46,487 bases of DNA from an uncultured Methanosarcinales archaeon (GTDB lineage: Archaea; Halobacteriota; Methanosarcinia; Methanosarcinales; CAZCCY01), in assembly GCA_964497545.1 (NCBI GenBank), contig CAZCCY010000003.1, forward strand, positions 1-46,487. The letters run 5' to 3'. The notes under the pieces are model-generated. The model saw only the letters and a list, made by a program, of their open reading frames with translations, searched no databases and was not told the DNA's origin. Below, one piece after another: positions 16,289-44,200 of this stretch. Numbering within the stretch: the first letter of the stretch is position 1; each line of letters opens with the position of its first letter. Both the position numbers and the translations under genes were made by a program.

Positions 16289-16597
16289 ATGTATCTGCGA
16301 TACATCTTCTCATTATTGGCACCTGCCCCATTGATCTTTGCACAAGTTGCAGAGGCCCTGGTTCTGCAGGGTGGCCAGGGGACATTTAAAACCAGGCCAA
16401 GGGTCGCGGTGGCAGCATACCACACACCTGTCCAGGCGATGGAGGTCTCCACCTGCCTGACAAAAATGGGATACCAGCCGGGAATAGAGTACGCCCGCTC
16501 AGGCGTCTACCGGGCCATGCAGGACCATGTGCCCATCATCTACGGTGGCGTCTCAGGGAGAGGAGGATTAGGGCCAGGATTGTTAGGGGGGCTGTGA
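16289..16597 (+). CDS. Orphan ORF of uncertain reality
   Basis: Coding-like GC content but no recognisable motif. The last 60 nt are antisense to the C-terminus of the convergent DUF3344 gene. Confidence 0.2.
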   Translation: MYLRYIFSLLAPAPLIFAQVAEALVLQGGQGTFKTRPRVAVAAYHTPVQAMEVSTCLTKMGYQPGIEYARSGVYRAMQDHVPIIYGGVSGRGGLGPGLLGGL

Positions 16598-17432
16598 AAC
16601 CTGGTGTTTTTGAGGGAGAGGTGTGTTTCACTGTCAGGAAGGCGTTGCTGACCACCATGTAGTCTCCGTTGTCCTTGATTCGGATGATGTTTTCTCCTTT
16701 TTTCAGGTAGGGTTTAACGTCTCTTGTGTCGATTGCCAGGTCAGGATAGGGTTTGCCCTGGTAGACCTGGTTCCAGGTTTTTTTGTTGAAATAGAGGGTG
16801 TTTTTACCCTTGTTGCCGCCTGCCACCACGGTGGTGAGTGTGGCTTTTTCTGCCTTGTCAGGGATGTTGTTGAAGCGGATTTCGGTGGTTGTGTTTTTTA
16901 TGCCCTGGAAAGCGTAAATCATGTCTGCCCCCTCGGCGAGCCAGTACTCAGTGTCTCCCTGGTAGACCAGGAGGAGTCCCATCCCGTTTATGGCGAAGTT
17001 GCCCTGGCCTGTGTTTTTTACCATGGCTGTGCAGTCTTTTTTGGTTACAAGGCCTGTGACGTTGTAGGCGTAGGTGCCGCTGGGGTAGTTGTAGGGGTCT
17101 TCTCCTTTCTGGTCGGTGTATTTTCTCTCGGGTGTGAGCAGTTTTCCCTGGAAGGTTGTTTCCATGGATGGGTTTACTCCCTGGTCTCCCTGGTGGCTCC
17201 AGGTCCAGTAGAGGTAGAGTCTTGCAAGTTTTATTTCACCCTCTCTGGGGAGGGTGAATTTCACGGTGTAGCTATCGCCTGGTGCCAGCTCGCCGCTGTA
17301 GGTGCTGTTTCCTATGGTGAAAACAGGCTCGCCTTTCCCGTGCTGGTAGGTTTCGAGCCGGTCTCCGGTGTAGGATGCTAGGGCGGGGGGTGTCAGGATG
17401 AGTGCCAGTGCGAGTGCTGCTATGATTTTCAT
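16536..17432 (-). CDS. Secreted DUF3344-like protein (single B-type domain) with PGF-CTERM sorting signal
   Basis: Signal peptide 'MKIIAALALALILTPPALA'. Blocks 'GNSTYSGEL', 'IKLARLYLYWTWSH', 'YPSGTYAYNVTGLV' and 'EYWLAEGADM' are shared with the paralogues. C-terminal 'PGFTAPLTILALILLSLRRHRR'. Confidence 0.8.
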   Translation of the reverse strand: MKIIAALALALILTPPALASYTGDRLETYQHGKGEPVFTIGNSTYSGELAPGDSYTVKFTLPREGEIKLARLYLYWTWSHQGDQGVNPSMETTFQGKLLTPERKYTDQKGEDPYNYPSGTYAYNVTGLVTKKDCTAMVKNTGQGNFAINGMGLLLVYQGDTEYWLAEGADMIYAFQGIKNTTTEIRFNNIPDKAEKATLTTVVAGGNKGKNTLYFNKKTWNQVYQGKPYPDLAIDTRDVKPYLKKGENIIRIKDNGDYMVVSNAFLTVKHTSPSKTPGFTAPLTILALILLSLRRHRR

Positions 17433-17462
17433 CTTTTCTCTCTCTTTTTTTAGGAGGAAACC

Positions 17463-17480
17463 GGGGGGGAGACCCCCCCC
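17463..17480. other. G7-AGA-C8 homopolymer hairpin between two genes of the DUF3344 array
   Basis: GGGGGGG-AGA-CCCCCCCC read directly. It lies 3 nt after the stop of the 79-aa ORF and 30 nt before the start at 17432. Confidence 0.5.
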
Positions 17481-17483
17481 ATT

Positions 17484-17723
17484 TTATGGCTTTCTTTTGA
17501 TGGGTGATATTTTACCGGGTGTGATGTCTATGGTGGCTATTTTTGTCACCCCATGGGTTTTGTTGCTGATTAGGGTCACTGGCTCCTGGGCATGTTCGTT
17601 GGATTGTAGCTGTGGGAGTGTCATTGCCAGTGCTGCTACCAGGGCCAGTGCCAGGGCGATTGCCTTCCACCTGCGTGCCTCCATTTCGGCTTTGTTGAGA
17701 CTCTCTGTTTCAGTATTTGGCAT
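17484..17723 (-). CDS. Small signal-anchored protein (79 aa)
   Basis: One TM segment 'WKAIALALALVAALAMTL'. It overlaps the end of the 807-aa gene by 14 nt and is co-oriented within the array. No family was recognised. Confidence 0.35.
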   Translation of the reverse strand: MPNTETESLNKAEMEARRWKAIALALALVAALAMTLPQLQSNEHAQEPVTLISNKTHGVTKIATIDITPGKISPIKRKP

Positions 17724-20133
17724 AGATGTTGTACCTCCCTTTCTCCATTTCCAGTGCGAAGCTCCCGTCGCTGTGTGTCATTGTGATGTAGACCCGTTCT
17801 TCGTCTGTGTCCTGTTGTCCATTGTCGTTGGCATCGTAGTATCCCACGTTGGTCAGGTATTCCTGGGTTTTGTGGGTGAAGGGGTCTGTGAGGTTCAGTT
17901 TTAGCTCGATGCTTGTGGTTTTTATTTTTGTCCAGTCCCATTCTGAGGGGTCTGTGGTGGCGTTTATCCCGTAGACTTCTATGTTGGGTGCTTCCCGTTT
18001 CCCGGCGACCTGGTTGAATTTGTTGTAGACTGCGAAGAAGAGGGTGCCTGTTGCTGCTCCGTAGCGGCTGTCTGGTACTGTTTTTATGCCGAGCTCGCTC
18101 AGTTCTCCTGGTGTGATGTCTGTGACGCCCAGGTCTGGGAGTTTGGGCTTGGTTTTGAGTATGAGTATGGCGTTGCTTGGTACTATGTAGTCGCCTCTGT
18201 CCTGGATGGCGAGTTTGTTGTTACTGGGCTGGAGGTGGCTGCCCACCTCCCACCGGTCTACCGCGATGAGCTGTCTGGAGGAGGGTGCGTCTGTTGTTCC
18301 GAGGAGGTGGGTGTTAAATGTAACCTTGTTTTTGTCCTGGTCGCCCTTGTCTGCACCCGGGATGACTGTTATGAGTGTGGCGTTTTTCACGGTGTCGAGG
18401 TCCACAGGGCCGTTGAAGTCTATCTGGGTGGTTGCCTGTTCTGGTGGGATGTCTTTTGCGTAGAGCATGTCTGCGCCCTCTGCGAGCCAGTATTCTATCT
18501 CAGTGCTGGTGTCTTCCACCACCACAAGTAGTCCTACCCCGTACATGGCGAAGTTGCCCTCGCCTGTGTTGTTAATGGTTGTGGTGTAATTCCCTTTACC
18601 GGTTACCAGGTCTGTCACATTGTAGGCGTAGGTCCCGCTGGGATAGTCAAAGCTGCCAAAGCCTTTGCTGTCAGAGTATTTCTCCTCTGGCGTGATGGTT
18701 GTCCCGTTGAATTTCACCTCCATCTCTGGATCGGCGCCGGTGTCCTCTTTGTGGCTCCAGCTCCAGTAGAGGTAGAGTCTTGCCAGTTTGATGGTGGCGT
18801 CAGTTTTCAGTTCTGACTCCACGGTGTAGCTGTCACCGTTTGCCAGCTCCCCGCTGTAGGTGCTGTTTCCCAGGGTGAATATTATGTCCCCTTGTATTTT
18901 CTCGTGTCTGTAGATGGTGAGGGGTTTGTCTCCGAAATACCCGTTTTTTGTCACAACCTCGGCGTCTGTGCTGTTCGCATTGTTTGTCTCATTGGATTCC
19001 TCGACCTCTCCCTCTGGGTCTGCTCTGACCTCGAGGAGGTAGGTTCCAGTCCCGGGTGGGTTCCAGGAGAATTCTACCGTGGTGTTTGAGCCTGGGTTCA
19101 GGCCCGGGATTTCCACGGTGTCGGTGGGGTTGCTGTCCACGTAGAGTGTGGCGTTGAAGGCTGTGGCGCTTCTTGTGCCCTGGTTGGCAATTTCAGCTTT
19201 TATGGTGCTGGGGGTGTTGTTGTAGATGAAAGCTGGCAGGCTCAGGTTCCCCACGGTGAGGTCTGGTTTCCCTGGTGGTGCGCCTTTTGTCAGTAAAAGC
19301 ACTGCAATTACCGGGTGCAGGCTTGTCCCGCTCCCCCGGTCAAACACCAGGGTGTTACTGGACGAAGCGAGTTTGTCTGTGACATCCCAGCTGTCCAGGT
19401 CAAAGTAGCTTCCCTGGTCTGCTTTTGCAGCGTCTGTGGCGATGGTGTTCCCGTTAAGGGTGAGGGTGTCGTCATCGCCTTTTTTGCTTGCAATGTATGC
19501 TGTCCAGAGGGTGGCGGTGCTACTGGTGTCGATTGTGCCCTGGAAGGCTGTGGAGGCTGTGTCTTTCGGGGTCTTGTGGTTGGGGTTCTCGTTCCCCTCG
19601 TTTATCCAGTACTCTATCTCCTCCCCGGTGGGGTCATTGTAGGCTGCTACAAGCACCATGCCATAGACCCGGCCGTCGATGTCTCCGCTGGTTGTGGCGG
19701 TCGCGGTATTCGAGCCTTCTTTGATTTTGTCGGTTACATTGTAGGCTGTCCAGTAGACGCCATAGCCTGACACGTAGACGTTGGGGTTTGTGTCGGCTTG
19801 ACCTCCGAGGTTTAAGGTTCCGAGGTCGTTGCTGTTAAAGGTTGTCTGAAGTGTACCGGTGTACTCAGGGTTGCCGCCCCAGACCCCCACGTAGAGTCTT
19901 GCGTATTTGATGCTGGATGGCACGTTGTTGAAGGTCTGAGTGTAGGGAGAGGATTTCAGGCCGTGTCCGCCGTTGATGTAGATTCCGCCTTTTATGGTTT
20001 CGTGTCTTGTGGTGCTGAGGGGTATGCCGTCGAAATTGTAGATGGCGGATGCTGGTGTTATCAGGAGTATCGCGCAGGATGCGAGCCACGCCATCCCCAC
20101 TATTTTTCTTTTTTTTATTTTTTTGATTTTCAC
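17710..20133 (-). CDS. Large secreted protein: DUF3344 A-type domain, CARDB domain, DUF3344 B-type domain, unknown C-terminal domain
   Basis: Signal peptide '..AWLASCAILLITPASA'. A-domain blocks are 'IKYARLYVGVWGG', 'VYWTAYNVT', 'YGMVLVAAY', 'EYWINEGNE' and 'YFDLDSWDVT'. CARDB block is 'PDLTVGNL...IANQGT...EESNETNN'. B-domain blocks match 16536-17432. The GTG start overlaps the upstream stop (GTGA). Confidence 0.85.
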   Translation of the reverse strand: MKIKKIKKRKIVGMAWLASCAILLITPASAIYNFDGIPLSTTRHETIKGGIYINGGHGLKSSPYTQTFNNVPSSIKYARLYVGVWGGNPEYTGTLQTTFNSNDLGTLNLGGQADTNPNVYVSGYGVYWTAYNVTDKIKEGSNTATATTSGDIDGRVYGMVLVAAYNDPTGEEIEYWINEGNENPNHKTPKDTASTAFQGTIDTSSTATLWTAYIASKKGDDDTLTLNGNTIATDAAKADQGSYFDLDSWDVTDKLASSSNTLVFDRGSGTSLHPVIAVLLLTKGAPPGKPDLTVGNLSLPAFIYNNTPSTIKAEIANQGTRSATAFNATLYVDSNPTDTVEIPGLNPGSNTTVEFSWNPPGTGTYLLEVRADPEGEVEESNETNNANSTDAEVVTKNGYFGDKPLTIYRHEKIQGDIIFTLGNSTYSGELANGDSYTVESELKTDATIKLARLYLYWSWSHKEDTGADPEMEVKFNGTTITPEEKYSDSKGFGSFDYPSGTYAYNVTDLVTGKGNYTTTINNTGEGNFAMYGVGLLVVVEDTSTEIEYWLAEGADMLYAKDIPPEQATTQIDFNGPVDLDTVKNATLITVIPGADKGDQDKNKVTFNTHLLGTTDAPSSRQLIAVDRWEVGSHLQPSNNKLAIQDRGDYIVPSNAILILKTKPKLPDLGVTDITPGELSELGIKTVPDSRYGAATGTLFFAVYNKFNQVAGKREAPNIEVYGINATTDPSEWDWTKIKTTSIELKLNLTDPFTHKTQEYLTNVGYYDANDNGQQDTDEERVYITMTHSDGSFALEMEKGRYNIYAKY

Positions 20134-21884
20134 TGTTTCTCCCTTCTTGTTATTTTTCGTTTTTTCTGGATTATCAGGAAGGCTGAGAGTCCGACAAGCA
20201 TCAGGATGGCGGATGGAAGCTCGGGGACTGGTGCTGGACTTCCTGGGCTTGAGCCCAGTATCAGGAAGGCGTTGCTTGGCACCATGTAGTCGCCCATATC
20301 CAGGACTCCAAGCTTGTTACCGGCTGATTGCACATATGCTAAGACATCGCGGGTGTCCACCGCGGTTGCGGAGGAGTCCAGCACCCCGGTCCAGGCCTGG
20401 TTGTTGAATAAAATCTCGTTTTTATCCTGGTCGCCCTTGTTTGCACTTGGGACAACAGTAATCAGGGTTGCACTCACAAGGTTACCGGGAATCACGTAAC
20501 CATCGAAGTTGATGTAGGTTGTCTGGTCCGGGGCAGTACCATAGCTTGTTTTTGCATAAACTGTGTCCGCACCCTCGGCAATCCAGTATTCCTTCCATTC
20601 TCCATTGGGGTCCTCAAATACGACAAGTAACCCTACTCCATACATGGCGAAGTTGCCCTGACCTGTGTTTTCCACCACGGTTGTGTAGTCTTTTGTGGCT
20701 GTCACAAGGCTTGTGACATCATAAGCATAGGTCCCGCTGGGATAGTCATAGCTGCCGAAGCCTTTGCGGTCATAGTATGTCCTATCCGGGGTAAGGGCGT
20801 TCCCGTCAAATTTTACTTCCATTTGGGGCTGGGTGACGCCCTGGCTCCCCTGGTGGCTCCAGCTCCAGTAGAGGTAGAGTCGTGCCAGCTTAACCGTGGA
20901 GCCAGAGGGAACATCCACATGGGATGTCACGGTGTAGGTGTCACCATTTGACATCTCCCCGCTGTAGCTGCCTCCAACGGTGTAGTTGAGACTTCCTTTT
21001 ACACTGTCGTGTCTGTAGATGGCCAGCGGCCTGTCAGCGAAATACCCGTTTTTCTCTTTCTTGGTGATTGCAAGCACTGCAAGTACCGGGTGAAGATGGG
21101 AATCGCTCCCCCTGTCAAACACCAGCGTGTTACTGGACGAAGTGAGTTTGCCTGTGACATCCCAGCTGTCCAGGTCGAAGTAGCCTCCTTGGTCTGCGGC
21201 TGCAGCGTCTGTGGCAATGAGGTTCCCGTTGAGGGTGAGGGTGTCACCATCCCCGCTTCCTCCTGCTAGGTAGGATGTCCAGAGTGTGGCGTTTTCCACC
21301 CCGGTGAGGTTAACTGTGCCATTGAAATAGCTGTCTGCTGTGTCTTTTCCAGAATGGAGATGCTCGTTACCCTCGTTTATCCAGTATTCCACAAGCGGCT
21401 GGCTCTGGTCCTCGTAGACTGCTACAAGCACCATGCCATAGACCCGGCCGTCAATGTCTCCACTGGTGGTGGCAGTTGCTGTGTTCGAGCCTGTGTTAAC
21501 CATGCCGGTCACATCATAGGCTGCCCAATAGACGCCGAATGCTGAGACATATACATTGAGGTTGGTGTCGGCTTGACCTCCGAGGTTTAAGGTTCCCAGG
21601 TCCTGGCCATTAAAGGTTGTCTGGAGTGTACCGGTGTACTCAGGCTTGCCGCCCCAGACTCCCACGTAGAGTCTTGCATATCTGATGTTGGATGGAACAT
21701 CGTTGAAGGTCTGAGTGTAAGGTGGATATGCCAGACCGTGGCCACCACTGACGTAGATTCCGCCTGCAAGGGTTTCGTGTCGTATGTTTTTCAGTTCGAA
21801 TCCATCTACATTGTAGTTTGCCGATACTGGTATTGCCAGGAGAACGAGCACTCCCACCAGTCCTATCCACATACATGTTCTCAT
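20130..21884 (-). CDS. Secreted DUF3344 protein (A-type plus B-type domains) with a PEF/PGF-like C-terminal membrane anchor
   Basis: Signal peptide 'MRTCMWIGLVGVLVLLAIPVSA'. It shares the A and B blocks of the 807-aa paralogue. The tail is 'SPAPVPELPSAILMLVGLSAFLIIQKKRK'. GGAGG lies 7 nt upstream of the ATG. Confidence 0.85.
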   Translation of the reverse strand: MRTCMWIGLVGVLVLLAIPVSANYNVDGFELKNIRHETLAGGIYVSGGHGLAYPPYTQTFNDVPSNIRYARLYVGVWGGKPEYTGTLQTTFNGQDLGTLNLGGQADTNLNVYVSAFGVYWAAYDVTGMVNTGSNTATATTSGDIDGRVYGMVLVAVYEDQSQPLVEYWINEGNEHLHSGKDTADSYFNGTVNLTGVENATLWTSYLAGGSGDGDTLTLNGNLIATDAAAADQGGYFDLDSWDVTGKLTSSSNTLVFDRGSDSHLHPVLAVLAITKKEKNGYFADRPLAIYRHDSVKGSLNYTVGGSYSGEMSNGDTYTVTSHVDVPSGSTVKLARLYLYWSWSHQGSQGVTQPQMEVKFDGNALTPDRTYYDRKGFGSYDYPSGTYAYDVTSLVTATKDYTTVVENTGQGNFAMYGVGLLVVFEDPNGEWKEYWIAEGADTVYAKTSYGTAPDQTTYINFDGYVIPGNLVSATLITVVPSANKGDQDKNEILFNNQAWTGVLDSSATAVDTRDVLAYVQSAGNKLGVLDMGDYMVPSNAFLILGSSPGSPAPVPELPSAILMLVGLSAFLIIQKKRKITRREKQ

Positions 21885-21980
21885 ACTTTTCCTCCATATT
21901 ACTCCTATTTAGTAATACTAATTCTCGTGTAGATAGAATTTAAACTACATAAATGTTTCTTATAATCAGAAATTTTAAGT

Positions 21981-22006
21981 AAAAAAAACAAAAATTTAAT
22001 AAAAAA
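21981..22006 (-). terminator. Oligo-T tracts (T8, T6 on the coding strand) after the S-component gene
   Basis: Plus-strand A8 (21981-21988) and A6 (22001-22006) lie downstream of the stop at 22027-22029. AT-rich promoter-like DNA for the next gene follows. Confidence 0.35.
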
Positions 22007-22026
22007 TACTATTTTTTCTTTGTATT

Positions 22027-23097
22027 TCATATTGTTGCTTTTCGCATCTTCCGGGCGATATCATACCCAATGTAACCGCCAATAACACCCCCCAGAGCGG
22101 CAATGCCAACCTCGCTCCAGGCATACCAGGGAGCATAATACACCTTCCACACCGCAGGAGCAAAAAGAAAATAAAACGTCCAGTACGAAAACCCACCCCT
22201 GACAACACCATAAATAATAGACGTCCCCCGTTTATCCCCATAATCCCGGAACAACATCACAAGCACATCCACAATCACACCCTCACCCATGTACCACCCA
22301 AGCCAGAGAGTGACATTAGTCCCCCACACCACCATCGCCACAAGCTCCACCACAGTGAAAAGCAGGGTGGCTGTCCCAGGCTTCCTCACCAGCTGAAGCG
22401 CAACTATCAACACCACCGTGGTAGGAATCGTGAAGAGAAGCCCGCCCAGCGGGCCCAGCAGGTCATTAAAGGTCTGCCAGAACCACCGGAACACCACCCC
22501 AATAAGAGCGGCAAGAAGCGCCAGGGTAACCAGGTCAATGGTGGTAAACCACTCAAGCAACCTGAGCCTCCGGGACACCAGAAACACAACCAACACAATA
22601 AGAAAACTGGCAACCAGACTCCCGTAGGTCACCCAGGAAGGAGGCGGCACAACCTCCACCTCATGGATGTAACTCTCCCTCCTAACACCACCACCATCAG
22701 AATAACTCACATTCACCCGGAAGCTCACACTCTTCCTGAACTCCACAGACTCAGGCGGCTTAACCGAGAAAACAAAAGAACTAGAATCCCCTGGCCCCAG
22801 GACATCAATAACAGCCTTCACCCTTCCACCCTCCACCCAGGTCTCGGTCTCCTGGCCAGGAACCTCAACATCCATACCAGACGGGACATCCACACTCACC
22901 CTGACATCCCGCAAAGGCGTCTCACCATTGTTGGTCAGGGTGACCCTCGCCCTCTCATGCCAGGTGACACCTGCCACCAGCCTGTCAGATTCATAGATGT
23001 CCTTGTTCTTCACAGGTATGGTCATCCCCACCTCCAGCCCGCCCACTGCCAGACAGGCAAGGAGAATGATAACCAGGACAAAAAGGGAGCGCCTCAT
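22027..23097 (-). CDS. YkoE-like ECF transporter S component with an N-terminal signal peptide and beta-sandwich ectodomain
   Basis: The C-terminal ~190 aa are multi-TM: 'TTIDLVTLALLAALIGVVF...LVRKPGTATLLFTVVELV...', resembling the YkoE / ABC_cobalt-type S-component pattern. The N-terminal ~160 aa are 'VTLTNNGETPLRDVRVSVDVPSG...'. An ATGA overlap couples it to the upstream gene. Confidence 0.65.
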   Translation of the reverse strand: MRRSLFVLVIILLACLAVGGLEVGMTIPVKNKDIYESDRLVAGVTWHERARVTLTNNGETPLRDVRVSVDVPSGMDVEVPGQETETWVEGGRVKAVIDVLGPGDSSSFVFSVKPPESVEFRKSVSFRVNVSYSDGGGVRRESYIHEVEVVPPPSWVTYGSLVASFLIVLVVFLVSRRLRLLEWFTTIDLVTLALLAALIGVVFRWFWQTFNDLLGPLGGLLFTIPTTVVLIVALQLVRKPGTATLLFTVVELVAMVVWGTNVTLWLGWYMGEGVIVDVLVMLFRDYGDKRGTSIIYGVVRGGFSYWTFYFLFAPAVWKVYYAPWYAWSEVGIAALGGVIGGYIGYDIARKMRKATI

Positions 23098-24008
23098 CTC
23101 CTACGCCTCAACCGATAAAAGAAAAACACGACACTGGCCACCAGCACCACAATTACCGGCATCGGGACAGTAGCCCTCCCAGGGCCAACCTGCCCACCCA
23201 GCCTGAGATAATCCTCCCCCTGGTCATAGAGGTACTCCACCGCCAGAACCGCGTTGAAAGGATGAATATATGCCTCCTCACCCCGCTCAAACCTCAAGGT
23301 GTTATTCAAACCCACCAGGCCTGTCACATCCCACCTGTCCAGGTCAAAATACGCCCCGGACTTCGCCCTACCCACATCCTCTCCCAGAAGCTGGGAGTTA
23401 AAATAGAGACGATCCTCCTCACCCTTGTTCCCCGCTATTAAAACCGTCCAGAGAGTGGCATTTTTTATTTCAAGGGAGGTGGCATTGAAGACAACACTGG
23501 TACTATCCCTGGTCTGACGGGCAAGAGCCTGGTTCCCCTCTGCTATCCAGAACTCGGTCTGAGGCATGCTAGAATTCCGATAAACAGCAACAAGGACAAT
23601 ACCATAGGGGGCACCATTCAGATTATGATACCTCACCGAGACCCTGTTCACACCCTCTGATAGCATGCCGGTGACATTGTAGACATAACATGCAACACCC
23701 CAGGCTGCCAGATAATCAGGAGAACTCCGCCTCCCAAGAGTCCTGTTATTGATGCTCACCTCAAGCCAGTCATCCCTGTTGTAATTCCACATCGGCACAT
23801 AGAGCCTGGCATACTCTATCCTGGAGGGCAAGTCAAAATACTCCTCATAAGGGTTTTCATGGGTGTAACCATGGCCACCCCCCACAAACACGCCCCCATG
23901 CACCCTGCCCTCAGCCACAACATAGAGGGGTGTCCCCTCCCCCCTCCACTCACCCCCACTTGCAACCGGGACAAAAAGAAGAAGGACAAAAAGAAGGACA
24001 ACCCTCAT
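23094..24008 (-). CDS. DUF3344-like (A-type) extracytoplasmic protein with a C-terminal TM anchor, embedded in the ECF operon
   Basis: Signal peptide 'MRVVLLFVLLLFVPVASG'. Blocks are 'IEYARLYVPMWN', 'CYVYNVTG', 'YGIVLVAVY', 'EFWIAEGNQ' and 'YFDLDRWDVT'. The tail is 'VPMPVIVVLVASVVFFFYRLRRRR'. ATGA overlaps occur at both ends. Confidence 0.8.
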   Translation of the reverse strand: MRVVLLFVLLLFVPVASGGEWRGEGTPLYVVAEGRVHGGVFVGGGHGYTHENPYEEYFDLPSRIEYARLYVPMWNYNRDDWLEVSINNRTLGRRSSPDYLAAWGVACYVYNVTGMLSEGVNRVSVRYHNLNGAPYGIVLVAVYRNSSMPQTEFWIAEGNQALARQTRDSTSVVFNATSLEIKNATLWTVLIAGNKGEEDRLYFNSQLLGEDVGRAKSGAYFDLDRWDVTGLVGLNNTLRFERGEEAYIHPFNAVLAVEYLYDQGEDYLRLGGQVGPGRATVPMPVIVVLVASVVFFFYRLRRRR

Positions 24009-31412: not shown

Positions 31413-32023
31413 ATGTATTTCTGGGCTGCTGTTATCAGCCTGTCCATGGTGCGATGGAGGCTTTTCAGCCCCTCGGTGTCATCGCTTGCACCCTCAGCCC
31501 CCCTGTCCCGGGACCAGAGGCACCCGCCCAGGTTAGCGCCGAAGGAACCGCCTCCAACCGGTATTACCTCGCTGATAACATAGAAGTTGAGGATGGTCTG
31601 AATCGCGGGTTCCTGTCCGCCCACCCTGTCCCCGCCCACTGCAATCGCAGCCCCAATTTTACCTCTAAAAGCCTGGGGGTCCCTGGCCAGAAGAGCCCGA
31701 CACCGGTCCATCATCACCTTGGTCTGACCACTCAGGGTGCCCTGGTAGACAGGAGTGCCAATAATCCAGGCATCAGCCCAGAGCAGCCCATCATAAGCCT
31801 CGACCAGATCGTCCTTGTGGACACACCCCTGCCGGGTGCGGATGCAGTAATCACAGTGGATGCAGAAATTCACCCTTTTACCGTGAAAAGAAAAATACCT
31901 TGTCTCGACAGGATACCTCTCCTCTGCATACCGTAAAGCCTCCCTCACAGCAAAATCTGTAGCGGCAAGACGGGGACTGCCCGAAAACCCGAAAAGCCTG
32001 ACCCTGGCTGGCACAGGGTGCAC
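31409..32023 (-). CDS. Iron-sulfur flavoprotein / NADPH-dependent FMN reductase family protein
   Basis: Flavodoxin-like 'LFGFSGSPR' and 'IIGTPVYQGTLSGQTK'. The compact Cys motif 'CIHCDYCIRTRQGC' resembles Isf-type proteins. Confidence 0.7.
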   Translation of the reverse strand: MHPVPARVRLFGFSGSPRLAATDFAVREALRYAEERYPVETRYFSFHGKRVNFCIHCDYCIRTRQGCVHKDDLVEAYDGLLWADAWIIGTPVYQGTLSGQTKVMMDRCRALLARDPQAFRGKIGAAIAVGGDRVGGQEPAIQTILNFYVISEVIPVGGGSFGANLGGCLWSRDRGAEGASDDTEGLKSLHRTMDRLITAAQKYI

Positions 32024-32256
32024 ATCTGTGACGTAGAGATAAAAACGTTTTCCCCCTTTACAGCATACTTCCCTTGCCTTTATCTTTCCCTTTCACATTA
32101 CTAGAATTTAATTTTCTATATTGTTTTTTTTTGAGAGTTTGCATAATTTTATCTAGTATTATTGTTATAACAGTAATTGTGGGTAAGGCCAGGGAATTCC
32201 CGTGTACCTTGAGGTGCACTTCATAGGGATCCTGGGTCCACTTTATTTTCTCTTTT

Positions 32257-32904
32257 TTATTTGTTCCATAACAGCAATTTATCTCTGTTCATAATCTTCT
32301 CTTCTATTATGGTCCAATAAGAATTGTCATTATGATTAAATTTCCTGTGGATGCTCCAAGCAACAAAATCCACTACCTGCAGGGCTTTACTGGCTTGAGA
32401 GTCTCTGTGCTGAATCTCGACCGAACAATTCCTGCATAAACTCGTTTTGATGTAATGGTCAAAATTCTTCCTGATGAGCGTGTTTGTATGTTTCTTATCC
32501 ACCACTATCGTCAATTTTTGAATGCCAACAGCATCTATTTTATCCAGAAGATTCTTGCAGATGTAGTTATACAGTCTGTCCTTCGTATTAAAAAGACGAT
32601 CGTAAATCTTCTTTTTCTCCACAATTATAGCAAAAATCTGGCAATCGGTTTTTCTAACCTTTTTCAATATGCTTTCTCTTATCACTCTGTTAGATTTGTT
32701 AGCCTTTAGTTCAGGCATTTCCCTGATTTTTTTCTTGAGCTTCCTTTGTCTCACATTCTTAACGATTCTTTCAAGTTTGAGAGGATCGTCCGTAACTATC
32801 GCTGCTATTATAAAATATTCTGACCCATGCTTTCCAAGATCGCCGCTCTCATCGATATAAACATATTTTATTACCATATTTCTCATCACTTCGTGAGTTG
32901 ACAA
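32257..32904 (-). CDS. DUF3800-family protein
   Basis: 'YVYIDESGDLG' N-terminal motif and 'ALQVVDFVAW' are typical of DUF3800. The gene and its flanks (about 32040-33080) are markedly AT-rich relative to the neighbours. Confidence 0.65.
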   Translation of the reverse strand: MSTHEVMRNMVIKYVYIDESGDLGKHGSEYFIIAAIVTDDPLKLERIVKNVRQRKLKKKIREMPELKANKSNRVIRESILKKVRKTDCQIFAIIVEKKKIYDRLFNTKDRLYNYICKNLLDKIDAVGIQKLTIVVDKKHTNTLIRKNFDHYIKTSLCRNCSVEIQHRDSQASKALQVVDFVAWSIHRKFNHNDNSYWTIIEEKIMNRDKLLLWNK

Positions 32905-33085
32905 ATATTGTGTTTGTGTTCATCTCAAACCCCTTAAAACAGCTCTATTGTATCGATTGTATATAAAGAAAAACTTTTTTATAGCTATACAATTCGGAAA
33001 TACATGGAACCAGAAGTACTATGGTGGTGGGTGAATGTTTTATTAGCGGCTATCTCCATTTAGGCTATGTTTGAGGTAAACTTTT

Positions 33086-36670: not shown

Positions 36671-37246
36671 ATGCGTAGACACTTAGTGCAGAATGTAGGA
36701 TTAAATATTTTATCAGACCATATTTGGTTTACCATTTTTTGGACACTCCCTTATCTGGTGAAAGCAGAGCTTGAAGTTGACCAACAGGCAATTGAAAAGG
36801 AACGTGAAAAACTAGGACGATTCATTCTGGCAACCAACGACCCTGACCTCACAGGCGATGAAATCCTGTCACACTACAAAAGTCAGAGTAAGATAGAACG
36901 TGGATTCAGGTTTCTGAAAGACAAAAGTTTCCATGTTTCAGAGGTCTACCTGAAAAAAGAAAGCCGGATTGAAGCATTAACCATGATAATGGTCCTATGC
37001 CTCTTCCTTTATTCAATTGCTCAATGGATGTTAAGAAATAGACTTAAAGAGACAAACAAATTTGTCAGAAACCAGGTAAAGAAACCTATACAGAACCCCA
37101 CAATGAGATGGATATTTTTCCTGTTCAGAAGGATCACAGAAGTAACAATCCACAATGGTAAAACCGTTAAAAAGAAAGTGGCAAATATGACCGAGGAGTT
37201 ATGGGATATTCTGAGTCTGGCGAGGGCGAAAGCCCGAGCCAGTTGA
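36671..37246 (+). mobile_element. C-terminal fragment of an IS1634/IS4-like DDE transposase (relic)
   Basis: 'LGRFILATNDPDLTGDEILSHYKSQSKIERGFRFLKDKSF' is the typical C-terminal YK..ER..FR.LK block. The N-terminal ~2/3 of a transposase is missing, and no terminal inverted repeats were identified. Confidence 0.6.
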
Positions 37247-37262
37247 TACGAAGTATCAACCT
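37215..37262. repeat. Multi-hairpin repeat element, partial copy C (inverted relative to copy A)
   Basis: GGGC-GAAA-GCCC (37224-37235) and GTTGATAC-GAA-GTATCAAC (37242-37260). 'aagcccgagccagttgatacgaagtatcaacc' resembles the reverse complement of 879-912 in copy A. Confidence 0.45.
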
Positions 37263-38627: not shown

Positions 38628-38634
38628 AATAATG

Positions 38635-38640
38635 TTTTTT
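38635..38640 (+). terminator. T6 tract 8 nt after the GlmU-like stop
   Basis: 'tgaaataatgttttttgg' read directly from the sequence. Confidence 0.35.
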
Positions 38641-39037
38641 GGTTCTGTTGTTGAGAATGATGTTTGTGTTGTCTTGTCCGGGAATCTTTGATTTTTAGAT
38701 AATTTTGAAAATTGTTTGTAAGTTTGTTATGTTGTTTGTTTCGTTTTTTGTGTAGGGTGTCCAGTATGTTCTCTGAAATATTGTGTTTCAGGAAGGGGTT
38801 TTTTCAGGAATAAAGAGGTGTTTATAATGTCAGATAGTTTTTTTATATTTATTAACGGGGTTGTAAGTAATAATTTGATTAATCAATATTACATAATCAT
38901 TATCAGATGATAATTGTATTTTTGTTCTCGTTCAATTTTAGGTAGTTTAGTAAATATAAATTAATTGTTTTCTAATTCAAATCGTCAACTATTTATACTA
39001 TTGGCGTCAGACAGAAAGCATACGTCAGGCATACAAA

Positions 39038-39348: not shown

Positions 39349-40452
39349 ATGAGTGAAATGGAAACATTTGTGCAGGATGCCCTTAAGTATACGGAAAAAG
39401 AGAGGTCGTATCGCCAGGCAACTGGCGCAGGCGAGATGGAAGAGTTCGGAACACCCCAAATCGTCGTGGTGGGATGCGGAGGTGGCGGAAGTAACACCAT
39501 CCGACGCCTTTACAACATAGGGGTTTCAGGAGCAGAAACCATAGCCATCAACACCGACAAAATACACCTAGACCAAATACAGGCAGACAAAAAGATACTC
39601 ATTGGCAAATCCATAACCCGGGGCCTGGGAGCAGGCGGCTACCCCGATGTAGGAAGAAGAGCAGCAGAGCTGGCAAGAGGGACACTGGAAGAGGTGCTGA
39701 AAAACAAAGACCTGGTATTCATCACCGCAGGCATGGGCGGAGGTACCGGAACCGGCACCGCCCCAGTAGTAGCCGAGATAGCCAAGGAACAGGGAGCAAT
39801 AGTAATCGCAATGGTGACAAGCCCCTTCCGGGTAGAGCGAGCCCGGCTGGTCAAGGCAGAAGAAGGCCTGGAAGAACTCCGCAAAACCGCAGACACCGTG
39901 ATAGTCCTGGACAACAACAGGCTCCTGGAATACGTGCCAAGCCTGCCCATAGACAAAGCCTTCAGCGTGATGGACCAGCTAATAGCCGAAACCGTGAAAG
40001 GAATCGCAGAAACCATAACCCAACCCTCCCTCATAAACCTCGACTACGCAGACGTCAGAACCATCATGCGAGGTGGCGGCCTGGCAGTAATGCTGGTAGG
40101 CGAGGCAAAAGGCCAGGACAAAGCAACCGAGGTAGTACGCAACGCCCTCAACCACCCCCTCCTCGACATAGACACCCGCAACGCCACCGGATGCCTCCTC
40201 CACATCACCGGCGGAACCGACATGTCCCTCCACGAGGCAGAAGAAATCGCAGCCTCCCTAACCTACGAACTCGACCCAGAAGCCAACATCATCTGGGGGG
40301 CAAGAATCAAAAAAGACTACGAAGGCAAAGTACGCTGCCTAGCAATAATGACCGGCATCCAGTCAGCCCAGGTGATAGGACCAGAAAAAATAAAAACCGG
40401 ACAAAGACAACAACTAGAAGCCATACCATCAGGGATAGACTACATAAAATAA
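39349..40452 (+). CDS. ftsZ: Cell division GTPase FtsZ (FtsZ2-type inferred from cdrS linkage)
   Basis: '[11 protein letters not shown]' and the tubulin signature '[13 protein letters not shown]'; 367 aa. Confidence 0.92.
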
Positions 40453-40478: not shown

Positions 40479-40535
40479 TTCTATTTTTTAATCAGGCTCT
40501 CCCCGGTCATCTCCACAGGCTTTTCCAGGCCCAAC
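40479..40535. repeat. 57-bp direct repeat, left copy (attL-like)
   Basis: Identical to 42635-42691: ttctattttttaatcaggctctccccggtcatctccacaggcttttccaggcccaac. Confidence 0.85.
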
Positions 40536-40612
40536 GGTTCTACCATGATGGGAGCAACGTCTCTATTTTTGGAACTATTATCGCTTTAGCTTGCGGTTCC
40601 AGGATTGTCCCA
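40481..40612 (-). pseudogene. Displaced 3'-terminal remnant of gpmI
   Basis: The minus strand reads '[26 protein letters not shown]', against '[26 protein letters not shown]' in the intact gene. Beyond the 57-bp identity the match drops to 19/27. An 11-nt match (tagcttgcggt) to 42884-42894 then implies an internal deletion. Confidence 0.65.
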
Positions 40613-40716
40613 AAAAATGGAACGTTTATTCCACGTCACATATTTTAGCTGTTCCATCTTAAGTGGAGTTGACACGCCGTTAAAGACGTGATTAAGATAA
40701 AAGGAGGTGAAAAAAC

Positions 40717-41298
40717 ATGAAAAAAGTGATAACAGTAATACTATTGATATCTATGGTATCGGTGTCTATTACAGTAGCATCTTCCGACATATTATCCAGG
40801 AAAGATACGGTAACCGAAGCTGCGCTTGGTATCAAAGATGCTGATATTAAACACCAGCAGCCAGTCATAAAGACTTTTGATACCAAGCTGGGTACTGTTA
40901 CAGCTCTCACCAATGGAGGGACCATTGGAGAACTTCCTGACCCTGTGAAACTAGAACAAGAGATAAAAGATATTGCTGCAAAACAATTACCTGAAGCGAG
41001 TCCACTTGGTGGAGTCCATATAAGCGGTACTCTCCCTCCCTACTCTGCAGATGAATGGGGTACAGTTTATTTACAGCACGGTGAAACGGTTACAGTATCA
41101 CTTAGCTGGTATCCCTCTAGTTCAGAGATGATAGTCGGTCTCAAGAATGTAGATACTGGTGTGATTTCCTGGGGTCCTGGAATAACTGGGGGGTCAGGAA
41201 CTTGGTATCTTTCAGCATGGCAGACAGGGAGTTATAACATTGTCATCCTGAACCATAGTGGAGAAACAGTCACATACAGTGGATATGTATCTTGGTAA
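40717..41298 (+). CDS. Secreted protein, unknown family (islet cargo)
   Basis: AAGGAGGTGA lies 7 nt upstream of the ATG. Signal peptide 'MKKVITVILLISMVSVSITVASS'. The C-terminal half is beta-rich. Low GC. Confidence 0.6.
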   Translation: MKKVITVILLISMVSVSITVASSDILSRKDTVTEAALGIKDADIKHQQPVIKTFDTKLGTVTALTNGGTIGELPDPVKLEQEIKDIAAKQLPEASPLGGVHISGTLPPYSADEWGTVYLQHGETVTVSLSWYPSSSEMIVGLKNVDTGVISWGPGITGGSGTWYLSAWQTGSYNIVILNHSGETVTYSGYVSW

Positions 41299-41420
41299 AG
41301 AGAGATAAAAACTCTCAATTTTTATTTTTTAGCTATTCATAGTAATACCTAAATCTAAGCATATAACTAATATAGCGTGTCAAGTTGTGAATATAAAATT
41401 TAGTTAAAGGATGAAAATTT

Positions 41421-42008
41421 ATGAAAAGAGAGAATCTATCTAAGCAGGTTCTTATTATACTACTGCTTATTATAATCGGTGCAGGGTCAGCAACTATGAT
41501 TATAAAATTGGGGGGTATAGGAAACGAACGGATAAAAAATATTGTTACAGTGAATCAAATAACTAATGAAACAATAACTTTCGATGTTAATCAAACAAGA
41601 TCATTTTTTACAGCTAAAACTGGGAAAATTAGATATATCAACGAGACGACTGCTGAGCTAATTTTCGATAATGTCTCTTCTGGAACAAACGCCTTCAGTA
41701 GAGTATTTTCACCACAAGATTTAAAGTTGCCTATAGATAAAGAAAAACAAGCTATAGGTATTGCTCTTAGTGATTCTAAAGTAAAAGAAATTATATCTGG
41801 AAAAGAATACAATATAACCAATGTACAGAAGGTTGCTATAACCACTATGAACCAGACCTATCTATCTGAAGATAACGTGGTAGTTGAGATAGAAATAGAT
41901 AATCTTGTATATTTCATTAACGTGGATATGATAAAAAAAGCGGTACTGGGAGATGTTGTTCCTATTCCTAAGATAAAGATAACAAAAAATGTCTCTAAGA
42001 CTCAATGA
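41421..42008 (+). CDS. Signal-anchored / secreted protein, unknown family (islet cargo)
   Basis: N-terminal TM segment 'VLIILLLIIIGAGSATMII'. Low GC. No family was recognised. Confidence 0.55.
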   Translation: MKRENLSKQVLIILLLIIIGAGSATMIIKLGGIGNERIKNIVTVNQITNETITFDVNQTRSFFTAKTGKIRYINETTAELIFDNVSSGTNAFSRVFSPQDLKLPIDKEKQAIGIALSDSKVKEIISGKEYNITNVQKVAITTMNQTYLSEDNVVVEIEIDNLVYFINVDMIKKAVLGDVVPIPKIKITKNVSKTQ

Positions 42009-42041
42009 TAATATTATAATTATTTTATCTGGTGTTTATAA

Positions 42042-42587
42042 ATGAGGGTGGTGGAAAGATTATTAAATATGGTATTGCTCGTTGTATCGTCTTTTGTTTT
42101 AGCTATTAAAGTTCTCGTTCCCACTACAATCCAAGTTTTTATACAGGGTGAATTGATAACTCTTAAACAAGTACCAAATATTTATACATTATCTGATATT
42201 ATTGTAGTTGCCATATTCTCTTGCGTTCTTGGTGTAAGCGCTAGTTATTTGTTATTTTCAGCCAAATTGACATCTGAACATGAATTAACAGTCCAAACTT
42301 CTAAAACTGTTGCCAGTGTTTCATCAAATGTCTCAAGCCAAAATGGTGTAGTGCAACTTCTCCTGAGAGTCCTAAAAGAAAATGAACGTAGAATTGTAAA
42401 AATACTTTTAGAAAATGGAGAGATGAACCAATCCGAACTTGCCTCCAGGACAAATATCCCCAAATCAACCCTATCAAGGGTATTAGCAGATTTAGAAAAA
42501 AAGGAATTGATAATCAGATACGAAAAGGGGATGAGCAAGATGGTGAAGTTTGCAAATAATTTTCAGAAGGAAGAGAACAAAGACTAG
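42042..42587 (+). CDS. Membrane-anchored winged-helix (MarR/ArsR-like) DNA-binding protein (islet cargo)
   Basis: Two N-terminal TM helices are followed by 'NERRIVKILLENGEMNQSELASRTNIPKSTLSRVLADLEKKELIIRYEKG', a wHTH pattern. Confidence 0.6.
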   Translation: MRVVERLLNMVLLVVSSFVLAIKVLVPTTIQVFIQGELITLKQVPNIYTLSDIIVVAIFSCVLGVSASYLLFSAKLTSEHELTVQTSKTVASVSSNVSSQNGVVQLLLRVLKENERRIVKILLENGEMNQSELASRTNIPKSTLSRVLADLEKKELIIRYEKGMSKMVKFANNFQKEENKD

Positions 42588-42609
42588 TTCTTTTATCCAA
42601 AGCCAAGTC

Positions 42610-42631
42610 CACAAGTATATCACAAGTATAT
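42610..42631. repeat. Tandem 11-bp repeat (cacaagtatat x2) abutting the right 57-bp repeat
   Basis: Read directly from the sequence. It lies inside the islet, 3 nt from the att-like core. Confidence 0.6.
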
Positions 42632-42634
42632 CTA

Positions 42635-42691
42635 TTCTATTTTTTAATCAGGCTCTCCCCGGTCATCTCCACAGGCTTTTCCAGGCCCAAC
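42635..42691. repeat. 57-bp direct repeat, right copy (attR-like; includes the gpmI stop and last 17 codons)
   Basis: Identical to 40479-40535. Confidence 0.85.
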
Positions 42692-44109
42692 AGTTCCAGC
42701 ATGGTAGGTGCAACATCTGCGAGAATCCCGTCTCCCCGAAGCTCCACACCCCCAACCGTCACAAGGAAAGGCACAGGATTGCCTGTGTGAGCCGTATGCG
42801 GTGTTGAGTTGTCATACATCTGCTCCGCATTCCCATGGTCCCCGGTCAAAAACATCACACCACCTATCTCCTCTAGCTTGCGGTGAATCCTGCCAATACA
42901 TGCATCCACAGTTTCAACAGCCTTAACCGCAGCAGCATAAACCCCGGTATGCCCCACCATGTCCAGGTTAGCGAAATTGAGAATCACAACATCATAATTC
43001 TCCATTATCTCAAGGAGTCTGGATGTCACAAGTGGGGCGCTCATCTCAGGCTTGAGGTCATAGGTTGCAACCTTGGGAGACGGAATAAGAACCCTATCCT
43101 CCCCAGGGTTAGCCTCCTCGACACCCCCATTAAAAAAGAAGGTAACATGGGCATATTTCTCAGTCTCAGCTATCCGAAGCTGCCTGAGACCCTGCTGGCT
43201 TAACACCTCTCCCAGGGTGTTCTTTATCCTGTGGGGTGGAAAAGCAACCCCAGCATTAATCTTCCGGTCATACTGGGTCATGCAGACAAAATAGACCCTG
43301 GGATGGACCTGCCGGGGGAAATAAGGGAAATCCAGGTCGGTGAAGGCCCGGGTGAGCTGGCGGGCACGGTCAGCCCGAAAATTGAAAAAAACCACCGAAT
43401 CCCCACTCCTTATAGTCCTGCCTGTAACCACAGTGGGCTTCACAAACTCGTCAGTCTCGCCCAACCGGTAGGCGGTTTCAACAGCCTCCACAGCACTCCC
43501 ACATTTTCTCCCCGCTGCCAGGGTCAGGGCATCGTAGGCAAGCCTGGTGCGCTCCCACCTCCGATCCCGGTCCATCGCATAATACCTCCCACTCACCGTG
43601 GCAATCTCACACCTCCTCTCAAGCTCCCGGATAAAACCAAGACCACTTTTGGGCGGGGTATCCCTCCCGTCCAGAAAAGCATGGACACAAACATCATTTA
43701 CACCATTAAACCTGGCCATCTCTAGCAGAGCGTGGAGGTGGTTAATGTGGCTGTGAACACCTCCATCCGAGACAAGGCCCATCAGATGAAGCGAAGAGCC
43801 AGAACGCTTCACATTTTCCAGGGCCTCCAGGAGCACCGGGTTCCGATAGAAACTCCCATCCTGGATGGCCAGGTCTATCCTGGGAAGTTCCTGAAGGACA
43901 ACCCTACCCGCGCCCAGGTTGAGATGACCCACCTCAGAGTTACCCATCTGACCCTCAGGCAGCCCAACAGCACTACCGGACGCCTTCAGGGTGGTATAGG
44001 GGTATTCCCGGAAAAGCCGGTCAAAGTTCGGGGTGTGAGCGTTTTTAATGGCGTTCCCCCTGGTCTCTCTGCTGCAACCAAAACCATCCAGAATCGCAAG
44101 CAAAATCAT
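42637..44109 (-). CDS. gpmI: 2,3-bisphosphoglycerate-independent phosphoglycerate mutase
   Basis: 'ILDGFG', '[15 protein letters not shown]', 'SDGGVHSH' and 'TGDHGNAE' iPGM motifs. The ATG at 44109 is preferred over the GTG at 44118. Confidence 0.9.
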
Positions 44110-44200
44110 CACACCCACACTATCAGGGGTTAAACTCCATGAATCTATCGAAAAACACGGAAAAAGGATTTAAACACCCCCGGTCCATTCTACCCTTTTA

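Follow-up and report, generated by a model that had tools for sequence, protein, structure and literature searches.

The 46,487-bp contig CAZCCY010000003.1 of a metagenome-assembled archaeon, analyzed here in its entirety and referred to as 'the window', contains between its ftsZ and gpmI genes a small AT-rich islet: three genes enclosed by a perfect 57-bp direct repeat that derives from the 3' end of gpmI. We interpret this islet, tentatively, as what a Campbell-type insertion left behind: a single crossover at the gpmI 3' end, with a recombinase supplied in trans as the more likely catalyst; we assign this interpretation a probability of roughly 40%. The repeat structure is real, is not the product of chance, and is of a classic kind, and what the islet offers is one well-documented instance of a pattern already known, not a new mechanism. 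If the insertion took place as proposed, an ordinary operon of methane-oxidizing Methanoperedens-like archaea could be relocated or exchanged as a unit, through recombination where a housekeeping gene ends and with no integrase of its own, and this would bear on how accessory surface functions spread among these uncultured organisms.

Repeat anatomy and islet borders

The two copies of the repeat, termed 'cores' (Table 1), are identical at 57 of 57 positions. Each comprises the 2 nt that follow the gpmI stop codon, the stop codon itself (42637-42639 in the right copy), the last 17 codons, and 1 nt more. The right core is the working end of gpmI, which is intact and full length, and has a C-terminus that agrees with the family consensus. 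Extended in register, the match covers 84 nt in all, at 92% identity. It is the sole long match between the two borders of the cassette, and the 46.5-kb contig holds no other long repeats except among paralogues; when both borders were shuffled 300 times, the longest exact border-to-border match averaged 7.5 nt, versus the 57 nt observed. The first-pass annotation of this DNA, made from the letters alone, had reported both the perfect repeat and its composition, with the left copy downstream of ftsZ, and our coordinates agree with it. It had also described the sequence between the cores as AT-rich unlike its flanks, which is correct (the 2,099 bp have a GC content of 0.355, versus 0.517 in the remainder of the contig, where no 2.1-kb stretch is lower), and as carrying three plus-strand genes. 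These are present (we term them c1, c2 and c3) and full length, c1 and c3 by comparison with their homologues.

Table 1. Coordinates of the islet, its repeats and the genes on either side
Feature	Coordinates	Strand	Description
ftsZ, left chromosomal flank	39349-40452	+	Pfam Tubulin and FtsZ_C; stop codon 26 nt before left core
Left 57-bp core (attL-like)	40479-40535	.	Non-coding copy of gpmI stop codon and last 17 codons; 100% identical to 42635-42691
27-nt decayed gpmI-like extension of left copy (arm)	40536-40562	-	20/27 identical; reads DVAPIMVEP
Conserved cassette promoter and operator region	40588-40716	+	Inverted repeat, half-sites, AT-rich box and Shine-Dalgarno; aligned with upstream regions of L162, L163 and L164
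c1	40717-41298	+	193 aa, secreted; N-terminal signal or transmembrane segment; C-terminal PPC/CBM-like (CBM, carbohydrate-binding module) beta jelly roll
c2	41421-42008	+	195 aa, membrane-anchored; seven N-x-S/T sequons; C-terminal domain of a helix and 4-stranded sheet
c3	42042-42587	+	181 aa; N-terminal hydrophobic (predicted transmembrane) region; C-terminal MarR/TrmB/DUF7343 winged helix
Tandem 11-mer CACAAGTATAT x 2	42610-42631	+	3 nt before right core
Right 57-bp core (attR-like)	42635-42691	.	Functional gpmI 3' end
gpmI (2,3-bisphosphoglycerate-independent phosphoglycerate mutase), right chromosomal flank	42637-44118	-	Pfam Metalloenzyme 5.6e-83, iPGM_N 1.4e-81

Read on the minus strand, the left copy restores the gpmI reading frame and continues past the core as a decayed arm. 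That a gpmI remnant lies here had been recognized before, and for 27 nt this is right, although the matches number 20 and not 19. The similarity to gpmI ends abruptly at 40562, and the duplicated segment amounts to 84 nt, no more. A further 11-nt match had been taken to imply a deletion of ~145 nt within a longer remnant, but this 11-mer (tagcttgcggt, 40588-40598) opens the cassette's own conserved upstream block of ~130 bp. Contig L164, a relative described below that has no adjacent gpmI, carries TAGCTTGTGGT at the same position, and the best alignment score of 40563-40716 with the body of gpmI was equaled or exceeded by 8 of 300 shuffles. We reject a longer remnant because the similarity ends at 40562 and the 11-mer belongs to the region upstream of the cassette.

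Mismatches are very unevenly distributed within the left copy: the core has 0 in 57 and the adjoining arm 7 in 27 (Fisher p = 2e-4). Because both lie in the same non-coding copy, the boundary between 40535 and 40536 is a recombination junction at which two DNA histories meet. Three of the seven changes in the arm are synonymous. The non-synonymous ones (T to I, L to V and L to P) fall at positions that are near-invariant among gpmI relatives, and the arm reads APIMVEP where the family has APT[ML]L[DE]L. Since these substitutions strike invariant residues, they indicate neutral decay of untranslated DNA; the arm has drifted for a long time without selection, and never occupies a coding position. 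The left core is much younger than the arm, unless exchange with the functional copy has kept it the same.

A second, independent assembly (JGI 3300023440) contains a near-identical contig, L081, that has the same arrangement and matches the window at 99.96% over 9.3 kb. The right core of L081 carries a synonymous A to C change at 42673 (L081 position 5482; CCT to CCG, Pro), and the repeat is 56/57 there. Of the three substitutions that separate the window from L081, one thus falls in the cores (114 bp together), against an expectation of 0.037, and the change may be a weak hint of exchange, or conversion, between the cores. The two contigs also differ at 43293-43294 (L081 6102-6103; AG versus GC), where gpmI has Tyr in the window (RVYFVCM) and His in L081 (RVHFVCM).

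In the integrated form the borders read ...CCCCCCAC, core, GGTTCTACC on the left and ...TATATCTA, core, AGTTCCAGC on the right. Reconstruction from these gives ...CCCCCCAC, core, AGTTCCAGC for attB, and ...TATATCTA, core, GGTTCTACC for the attP of a circle. Very little DNA at the borders is foreign to the cassette: ~25 nt on the left and, on the right, an unmatched spacer of 47 nt between the c3 stop codon and the core. The tandem 11-bp repeat reported earlier beside the right core is where it was said to be. These are the only two copies of CACAAGTATAT in the window, none with up to two mismatches occurs near the left junction, and for lack of further copies the 11-mer was rejected as an arm-type site. 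Nor do the ends of the islet resemble those of a transposable element. No inverted repeat joins them, no transposase lies within the islet, and we reject a transposon, insertion sequence (IS) or casposon on these grounds; a target-site duplication is ruled out because the 57-bp repeat has an in-register extension of 20/27. Neither a tRNA gene nor any Rfam family was found near the islet, and the idea that a tRNA or other RNA gene was the real target was dropped for this reason.

The three-gene cassette and its relatives

The whole cassette also occurs in the Methanoperedenaceae metagenome-assembled genome (MAG) L162 (GCA_014859785.1, JACUTP010000065.1, 3497-5377) and in two Logan contigs, L163 and L164. 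The order c1-c2-c3 and the upstream region are conserved in all three, and protein identities to the window are 59-79% (58.7-78.2% by tblastn; 62.5-78.6% by pairwise alignment). There, the cassette is situated between a gene of 80-83 aa and that for prephenate dehydrogenase. L162 and L164 are diverged from each other, with 67% identity between the C-termini of their prephenate dehydrogenases and 75-84% between their cassette proteins. Both have the cassette at this locus, so it is inherited vertically there. In the window the cassette and its promoter region occupy a different locus, and it has therefore changed position as a unit.

The low GC content accompanies the cassette. At third codon positions (GC3) the cassette genes span 0.25-0.33 in the window (host genes 0.50-0.68), 0.26-0.36 in L162 (host genes 0.47-0.51) and 0.27-0.33 in L164 (host genes 0.50).

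The protein encoded by c1 has no match in Pfam, PHROG, NCBIfam or PADLOC. Its residues 100-193 form a beta jelly roll in the AlphaFold2 (AF2) model, at a pLDDT above 93, and Foldseek matches this fold to 3afg, the C-terminal domain of the subtilisin Tk-SP (E = 1.5e-5), and to the PPC domain 5sv5 (E = 1.4e-3), as well as to collagenase PPC domains and several CBMs. The C-terminal domain is rare, occurring in just 36 clusters among 1.84 billion representatives. Some of these are multi-repeat surface proteins and one, the repeat protein P0212, matches Pfam PPC, the sole link between c1 and PPC at the level of sequence. The family of c2 comprises 16 proteins in all, of which the named one is from Methanoperedenaceae; the nearest homologue, P0180, is encoded on an NCBI contig of 16 kb. 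AF2 is confident for residues 100-185 of c2 alone, no match in the PDB is significant, and assignment of a function from the fold was rejected on both counts, since only half of the model is confident. The third protein, c3, exceeds the curated Pfam thresholds for MarR (42.4 bits, cut-off 24.6; E = 6.3e-11), HTH_24 (40.3 bits, cut-off 21.9), DUF7343 (39.0 bits, cut-off 27.6) and TrmB (36.6 bits, cut-off 25.6). Its 47 homologues are from Methanoperedenaceae, Methanophagales and Halobacteriota. PHROG has no family for c1 or c2 and gives generic helix-turn-helix (HTH) matches alone for c3; across PHROGs, PADLOC and NCBIfam, results for the cargo were negative or generic.

The conserved region upstream of c1 contains the inverted repeat TGGAACGTTTATTCCA at 40618-40633, together with extra GTCCCA/GTTCCA half-sites within 40600-40670. 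TGGAACGTTTATTCCA occurs once in the window. Among the 180 loci fetched, it occurs only upstream of close c1 homologues: it is present in every close cassette copy (L081 and L162-L164), and absent from the other 176 loci. This inverted repeat is probably the operator of c3, a putative cassette autoregulator with a winged helix (wHTH) that would bind the TGGAAC/GTTCCA repeats upstream. The cargo would then be a self-contained, self-regulated operon for surface and secreted proteins, and c3 its membrane-tethered repressor or activator. The cargo is neither a virus nor a plasmid.

In more distantly related versions the module ends with the wHTH gene, preceded by small exported proteins, and occurs beside ScpB-like or fumarase genes, or in a tandem array. 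The array (L165, 2860-7400) is built of three paralogous units that each pair an exported protein with a membrane wHTH protein. Its upstream regions are repeated, 60 nt at 88% and 47 nt at 72%, and local duplication is a further way in which the module family expands. In all four contexts—gpmI, prephenate dehydrogenase, ScpB-like and fumarase—the terminal wHTH gene is tail-to-tail with a housekeeping gene, either 0-49 bp away or overlapping it by 7 nt (L162 4823-5396; L164 1788-2366; L168 1139-1696/1690-2811; L171 8001-8612). This is suggestive, but could be due to chance.

How the islet might have arisen

The insertion that we favor would have begun with a circular DNA that linked the three-gene cassette to a mimic, ~84 nt long, of the 3' end of gpmI. 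The presumed order on this circular intermediate is cassette end, 47 nt, core, 27-nt arm, ~25 nt and cassette promoter. Recombining with the chromosomal gene within the 57 bp of identity at the gpmI 3' end, the circle would create an attL composed of the chromosomal ftsZ flank, the core and the element's decayed gpmI-like arm, and an attR composed of the cassette end, the core and the body of gpmI, leaving gpmI intact. The catalyst would be a site-specific recombinase not encoded by the islet, acting in trans or never part of the islet at all, and the islet would thus be an archaeal counterpart of the att-flanked, 'cis-mobilizable' elements that lack an integrase. Thereafter the cores would have stayed identical, or have been made so by later recombination or conversion, and the non-coding arm would have drifted neutrally. 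A single crossover within the 57 bp reproduces the structure of the islet exactly. The first-pass annotation had likewise proposed that an element integrated site-specifically at a gene's 3' end; the anatomy, with its intact gpmI and sharp junction, fits this, but the longer remnant on which it drew was mistaken, and the GC content is uninformative.

Comparable elements are known, and archaeal ones have an established route into the 3'-distal parts of protein-coding genes: in Thaumarchaeota, 14 of 68 integrated elements occupy such positions (PMC6563490). The smallest of the cryptic integrated elements (CIEs), NitUzo-E2, is 2.6 kb in length and encodes an integrase, one wHTH protein and a pair of hypothetical proteins, and crenarchaeal att sites are reported to be 29-69 bp (PMC6563490). 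Like the CIEs and other integrated mobile genetic elements (iMGEs) described by Krupovic et al. (2019, PMC6563490), the islet is bounded by repeats that come from a protein-coding gene's 3' end and leave the gene intact, its repeat length falls within the range for att sites, and in size and content it resembles NitUzo-E2. Unlike them, it lacks the defining gene, the integrase, as well as replication or other mobile hallmark genes, and its cargo is an operon of chromosomal type that relatives carry elsewhere without repeats. Elements flanked by att sites but devoid of an integrase are a recognized class in bacteria, the cis-mobilizable elements (CIMEs) of Firmicutes ICE families (ICE, integrative and conjugative element; PMC6323972). 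The islet shares with these its apparently intact attL- and attR-like repeats and its want of integration or transfer genes. CIMEs, however, are recognized through an autonomous ICE that uses the same att site, and no such partner was found for the islet in metagenome or viral contigs, a weak search; its host, moreover, is an archaeon and its target a protein-coding gene. 'Suicidal' integrase elements of the SSV type (PMC7253208) are also archaeal and bounded by direct repeats, but they split their own integrase gene at the borders, whereas the borders of the islet are ~25 and 47 nt long and contain no fragment. The closest counterpart in gene content, the chromosomal cassette of Methanoperedenaceae L162, has the same genes, order, upstream inverted repeat and low GC3, but is at another locus and has no flanking repeats of any length.

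A number of observations weigh against the insertion. No integrase or integrase fragment exists anywhere in the contig: among all of its open reading frames (ORFs), Phage_integrase, resolvase and casposase domains number zero, which extends the earlier statement that none is present in the islet or next to it. A wobble-degenerate pattern of the core, which does match the window, gave 0 matches to a second core or attP in metagenome and viral contigs, although this is a weak result since the source sample is evidently absent from them. Relatives of the cargo, which the first-pass annotation had suggested seeking in virus and plasmid collections, were found neither among viral contigs (IMG/VR; three single-protein scans and one profile scan) nor among phages and plasmids (blastn against INPHARED and PLSDB). 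No empty site was found either, the adjacency of ftsZ and gpmI not being conserved in relatives. Look-ups of the exact proteins returned the same population alone (L081 and contig L174); in the nearest other relatives, with FtsZ identities of 83-85%, ftsZ is followed by purE and not by gpmI; and a gpmI scan of genome contigs and a scan of metagenome contigs with the C-terminal half of gpmI gave, among the matches listed, identities of 65% or less, none with ftsZ adjacent. A literature search on gpmI as an att site yielded nothing relevant. Direct repeats, long or short, do not flank the cassettes of L162-L164, nor is there a flanking repeat at the fumarase-side loci (L171-L173) or around the tandem array; the contigs of L168-L170 end before the upstream border. 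Nor does any gpmI-like relic accompany the cassette in other genomes, local alignment scores being at the level of shuffles. The low GC content, once offered as a sign of foreignness, is intrinsic to the cassette and says little about when it arrived, because the cassette is equally AT-rich where it is clearly resident: GC3 is the same (0.25-0.36) at the Methanoperedenaceae locus, in two diverged genomes and without repeats. Finally, if an element and its protein-coding target match exactly over 57 bp, this calls for a special explanation, such as recent capture or homogenization. Of the view that the islet is a mobile element, the repeat anatomy stands; the missing second core, the missing viral and plasmid relatives, and the lack of a usable empty site count the other way. 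That the islet is a larger element in decay, as had also been suggested, is unlikely. Cassette homology fills it except for ~25 and 47 nt, and with so little border DNA and none of the three genes truncated, remnants of anything larger have no space. For those who search for islands there is a caution here: low GC content goes with this cassette in every host, and an att-like repeat alone is no proof of mobility.

The same topology could have come about with no site-specific recombinase, if a circularized or linear fragment carrying a 3' piece of gpmI had been inserted by the homologous recombination machinery of the host (RadA). Microhomology-mediated illegitimate recombination might have linked the gpmI piece and the cassette, with later gene conversion from the functional right copy renewing 57 nt within an 84-nt duplicate that was older and decaying. 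Such a history would suit the absence of an integrase from the contig, the lack of att scars at the other cassette loci examined, which implies that the cassette is not habitually mobile, and the single-nucleotide polymorphism in the right core of L081, which suggests ongoing exchange between the copies. It also gains from a microhomology-like overlap of ~9 nt, G[C/A]AAC[G/A]TC, at the point where similarity to gpmI ends and similarity to the region upstream of the L164 cassette starts, but this overlap comes from one comparator and a short, uncertain alignment, and L162 lacks it. We regard this history as rather unlikely: it leaves the first duplication of the gpmI end unexplained, and it requires conversion to run exactly to the outer edge of the homology. 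A replicative rearrangement in situ is improbable. By this account, akin to microhomology-mediated break-induced replication (MMBIR), a replication fork would have switched to the ancestral cassette locus as template, placed a copy between ftsZ and gpmI, and resumed 84 nt behind its point of departure, producing an insertion flanked by a duplication, the left copy of which then partly decayed. The neighborhood has indeed been rearranged relative to that of relatives, the region is rich in ISs, with remnants on both sides of the islet, and there is possible microhomology at the left inner junction. But the left copy should then have decayed evenly, which the skewed distribution of mismatches contradicts unless conversion is added, and a second copy of the cassette is not seen on the contig.

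The islet might, alternatively, be an artefact, assembled from an empty ftsZ-gpmI chromosome and a separate circle that shared 57 bp with it, the loop having been threaded by the assembler. A repeat shorter than some k-mer sizes does give such a graph topology, and the composition of the islet does differ from that of its flanks. This we consider extremely unlikely, inasmuch as two independent assemblies, the NCBI MAG contig and JGI 3300023440, agree, and the cores of L081 differ at one base and are hence distinguishable. The 57 bp are also shorter than typical reads and final k-mers. Returning to insertion at the gpmI 3' end, a bolder version holds that the islet is a live, integrase-less mini-element, the archaeal equivalent of a CIME: a self-regulated surface operon plus a gene-end mimic, which a trans-acting or host recombinase would carry from one housekeeping gene's 3' end to another's in Methanoperedens-like archaea. 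If this were so, the tail-to-tail contexts, 4 of 4, would reflect targeting of gene ends. We think it very doubtful.

Chromosomal surroundings

The best homologues of the window's FtsZ are 78-85% identical to it, and those that are named belong to Ca. Methanoperedens or to Methanoperedenaceae. On this basis, the host is a higher-GC relative of Methanoperedenaceae. The contig is chromosomal, and its genes include tmk, sdhAB and hemA, and those for aCPSF1/FttA, a proteasome subunit, ABCE1, L10e, eIF2-beta, aRF1 and OTCase, among others. In the nearest FtsZ relatives the gene order is thrS-RHH-ftsZ-purE (RHH, ribbon-helix-helix), whereas here it is glmU-like-RHH-ftsZ-islet-gpmI, and because of this the junction of ftsZ with gpmI is itself specific to the lineage. 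Both flanks of the RHH-ftsZ pair are rearranged with respect to the Methanoperedens relatives, in which thrS lies upstream and purE follows ftsZ. Upstream of this conserved pair is a 410-bp spacer (38628-39037) with a GC content of ~0.32.

Two traces of transposable elements are present, a DDE_Tnp_1 transposase fragment (36671-37246) and an IS21-like HTH ORF at the contig end (45812-46192). Assemblies from the same population break at the DDE_Tnp_1 fragment: L174 ends there, and L081 begins just after it. An inverted repeat of 29 nt, 83% complementary, has its arms 36 kb apart, at 879-907 and 37234-37262. Palindromic structure is seen within each arm as well (GATACTTCGTATC), and one of the two adjoins the transposase fragment's end.

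On the minus strand, 16536-24008 contains four tandem paralogues that encode DUF3344 surface-type proteins, one of them with CARDB. Long, diverged direct repeats lie between the genes of this array, suggesting local amplification of a gene family. A DUF3800 gene (32257-32904, minus strand) is located in a 1-kb patch (32001-33000) of GC content 0.34-0.38, between an FMN reductase gene and that for aRF1, and holds the same position in the sister contig L174.

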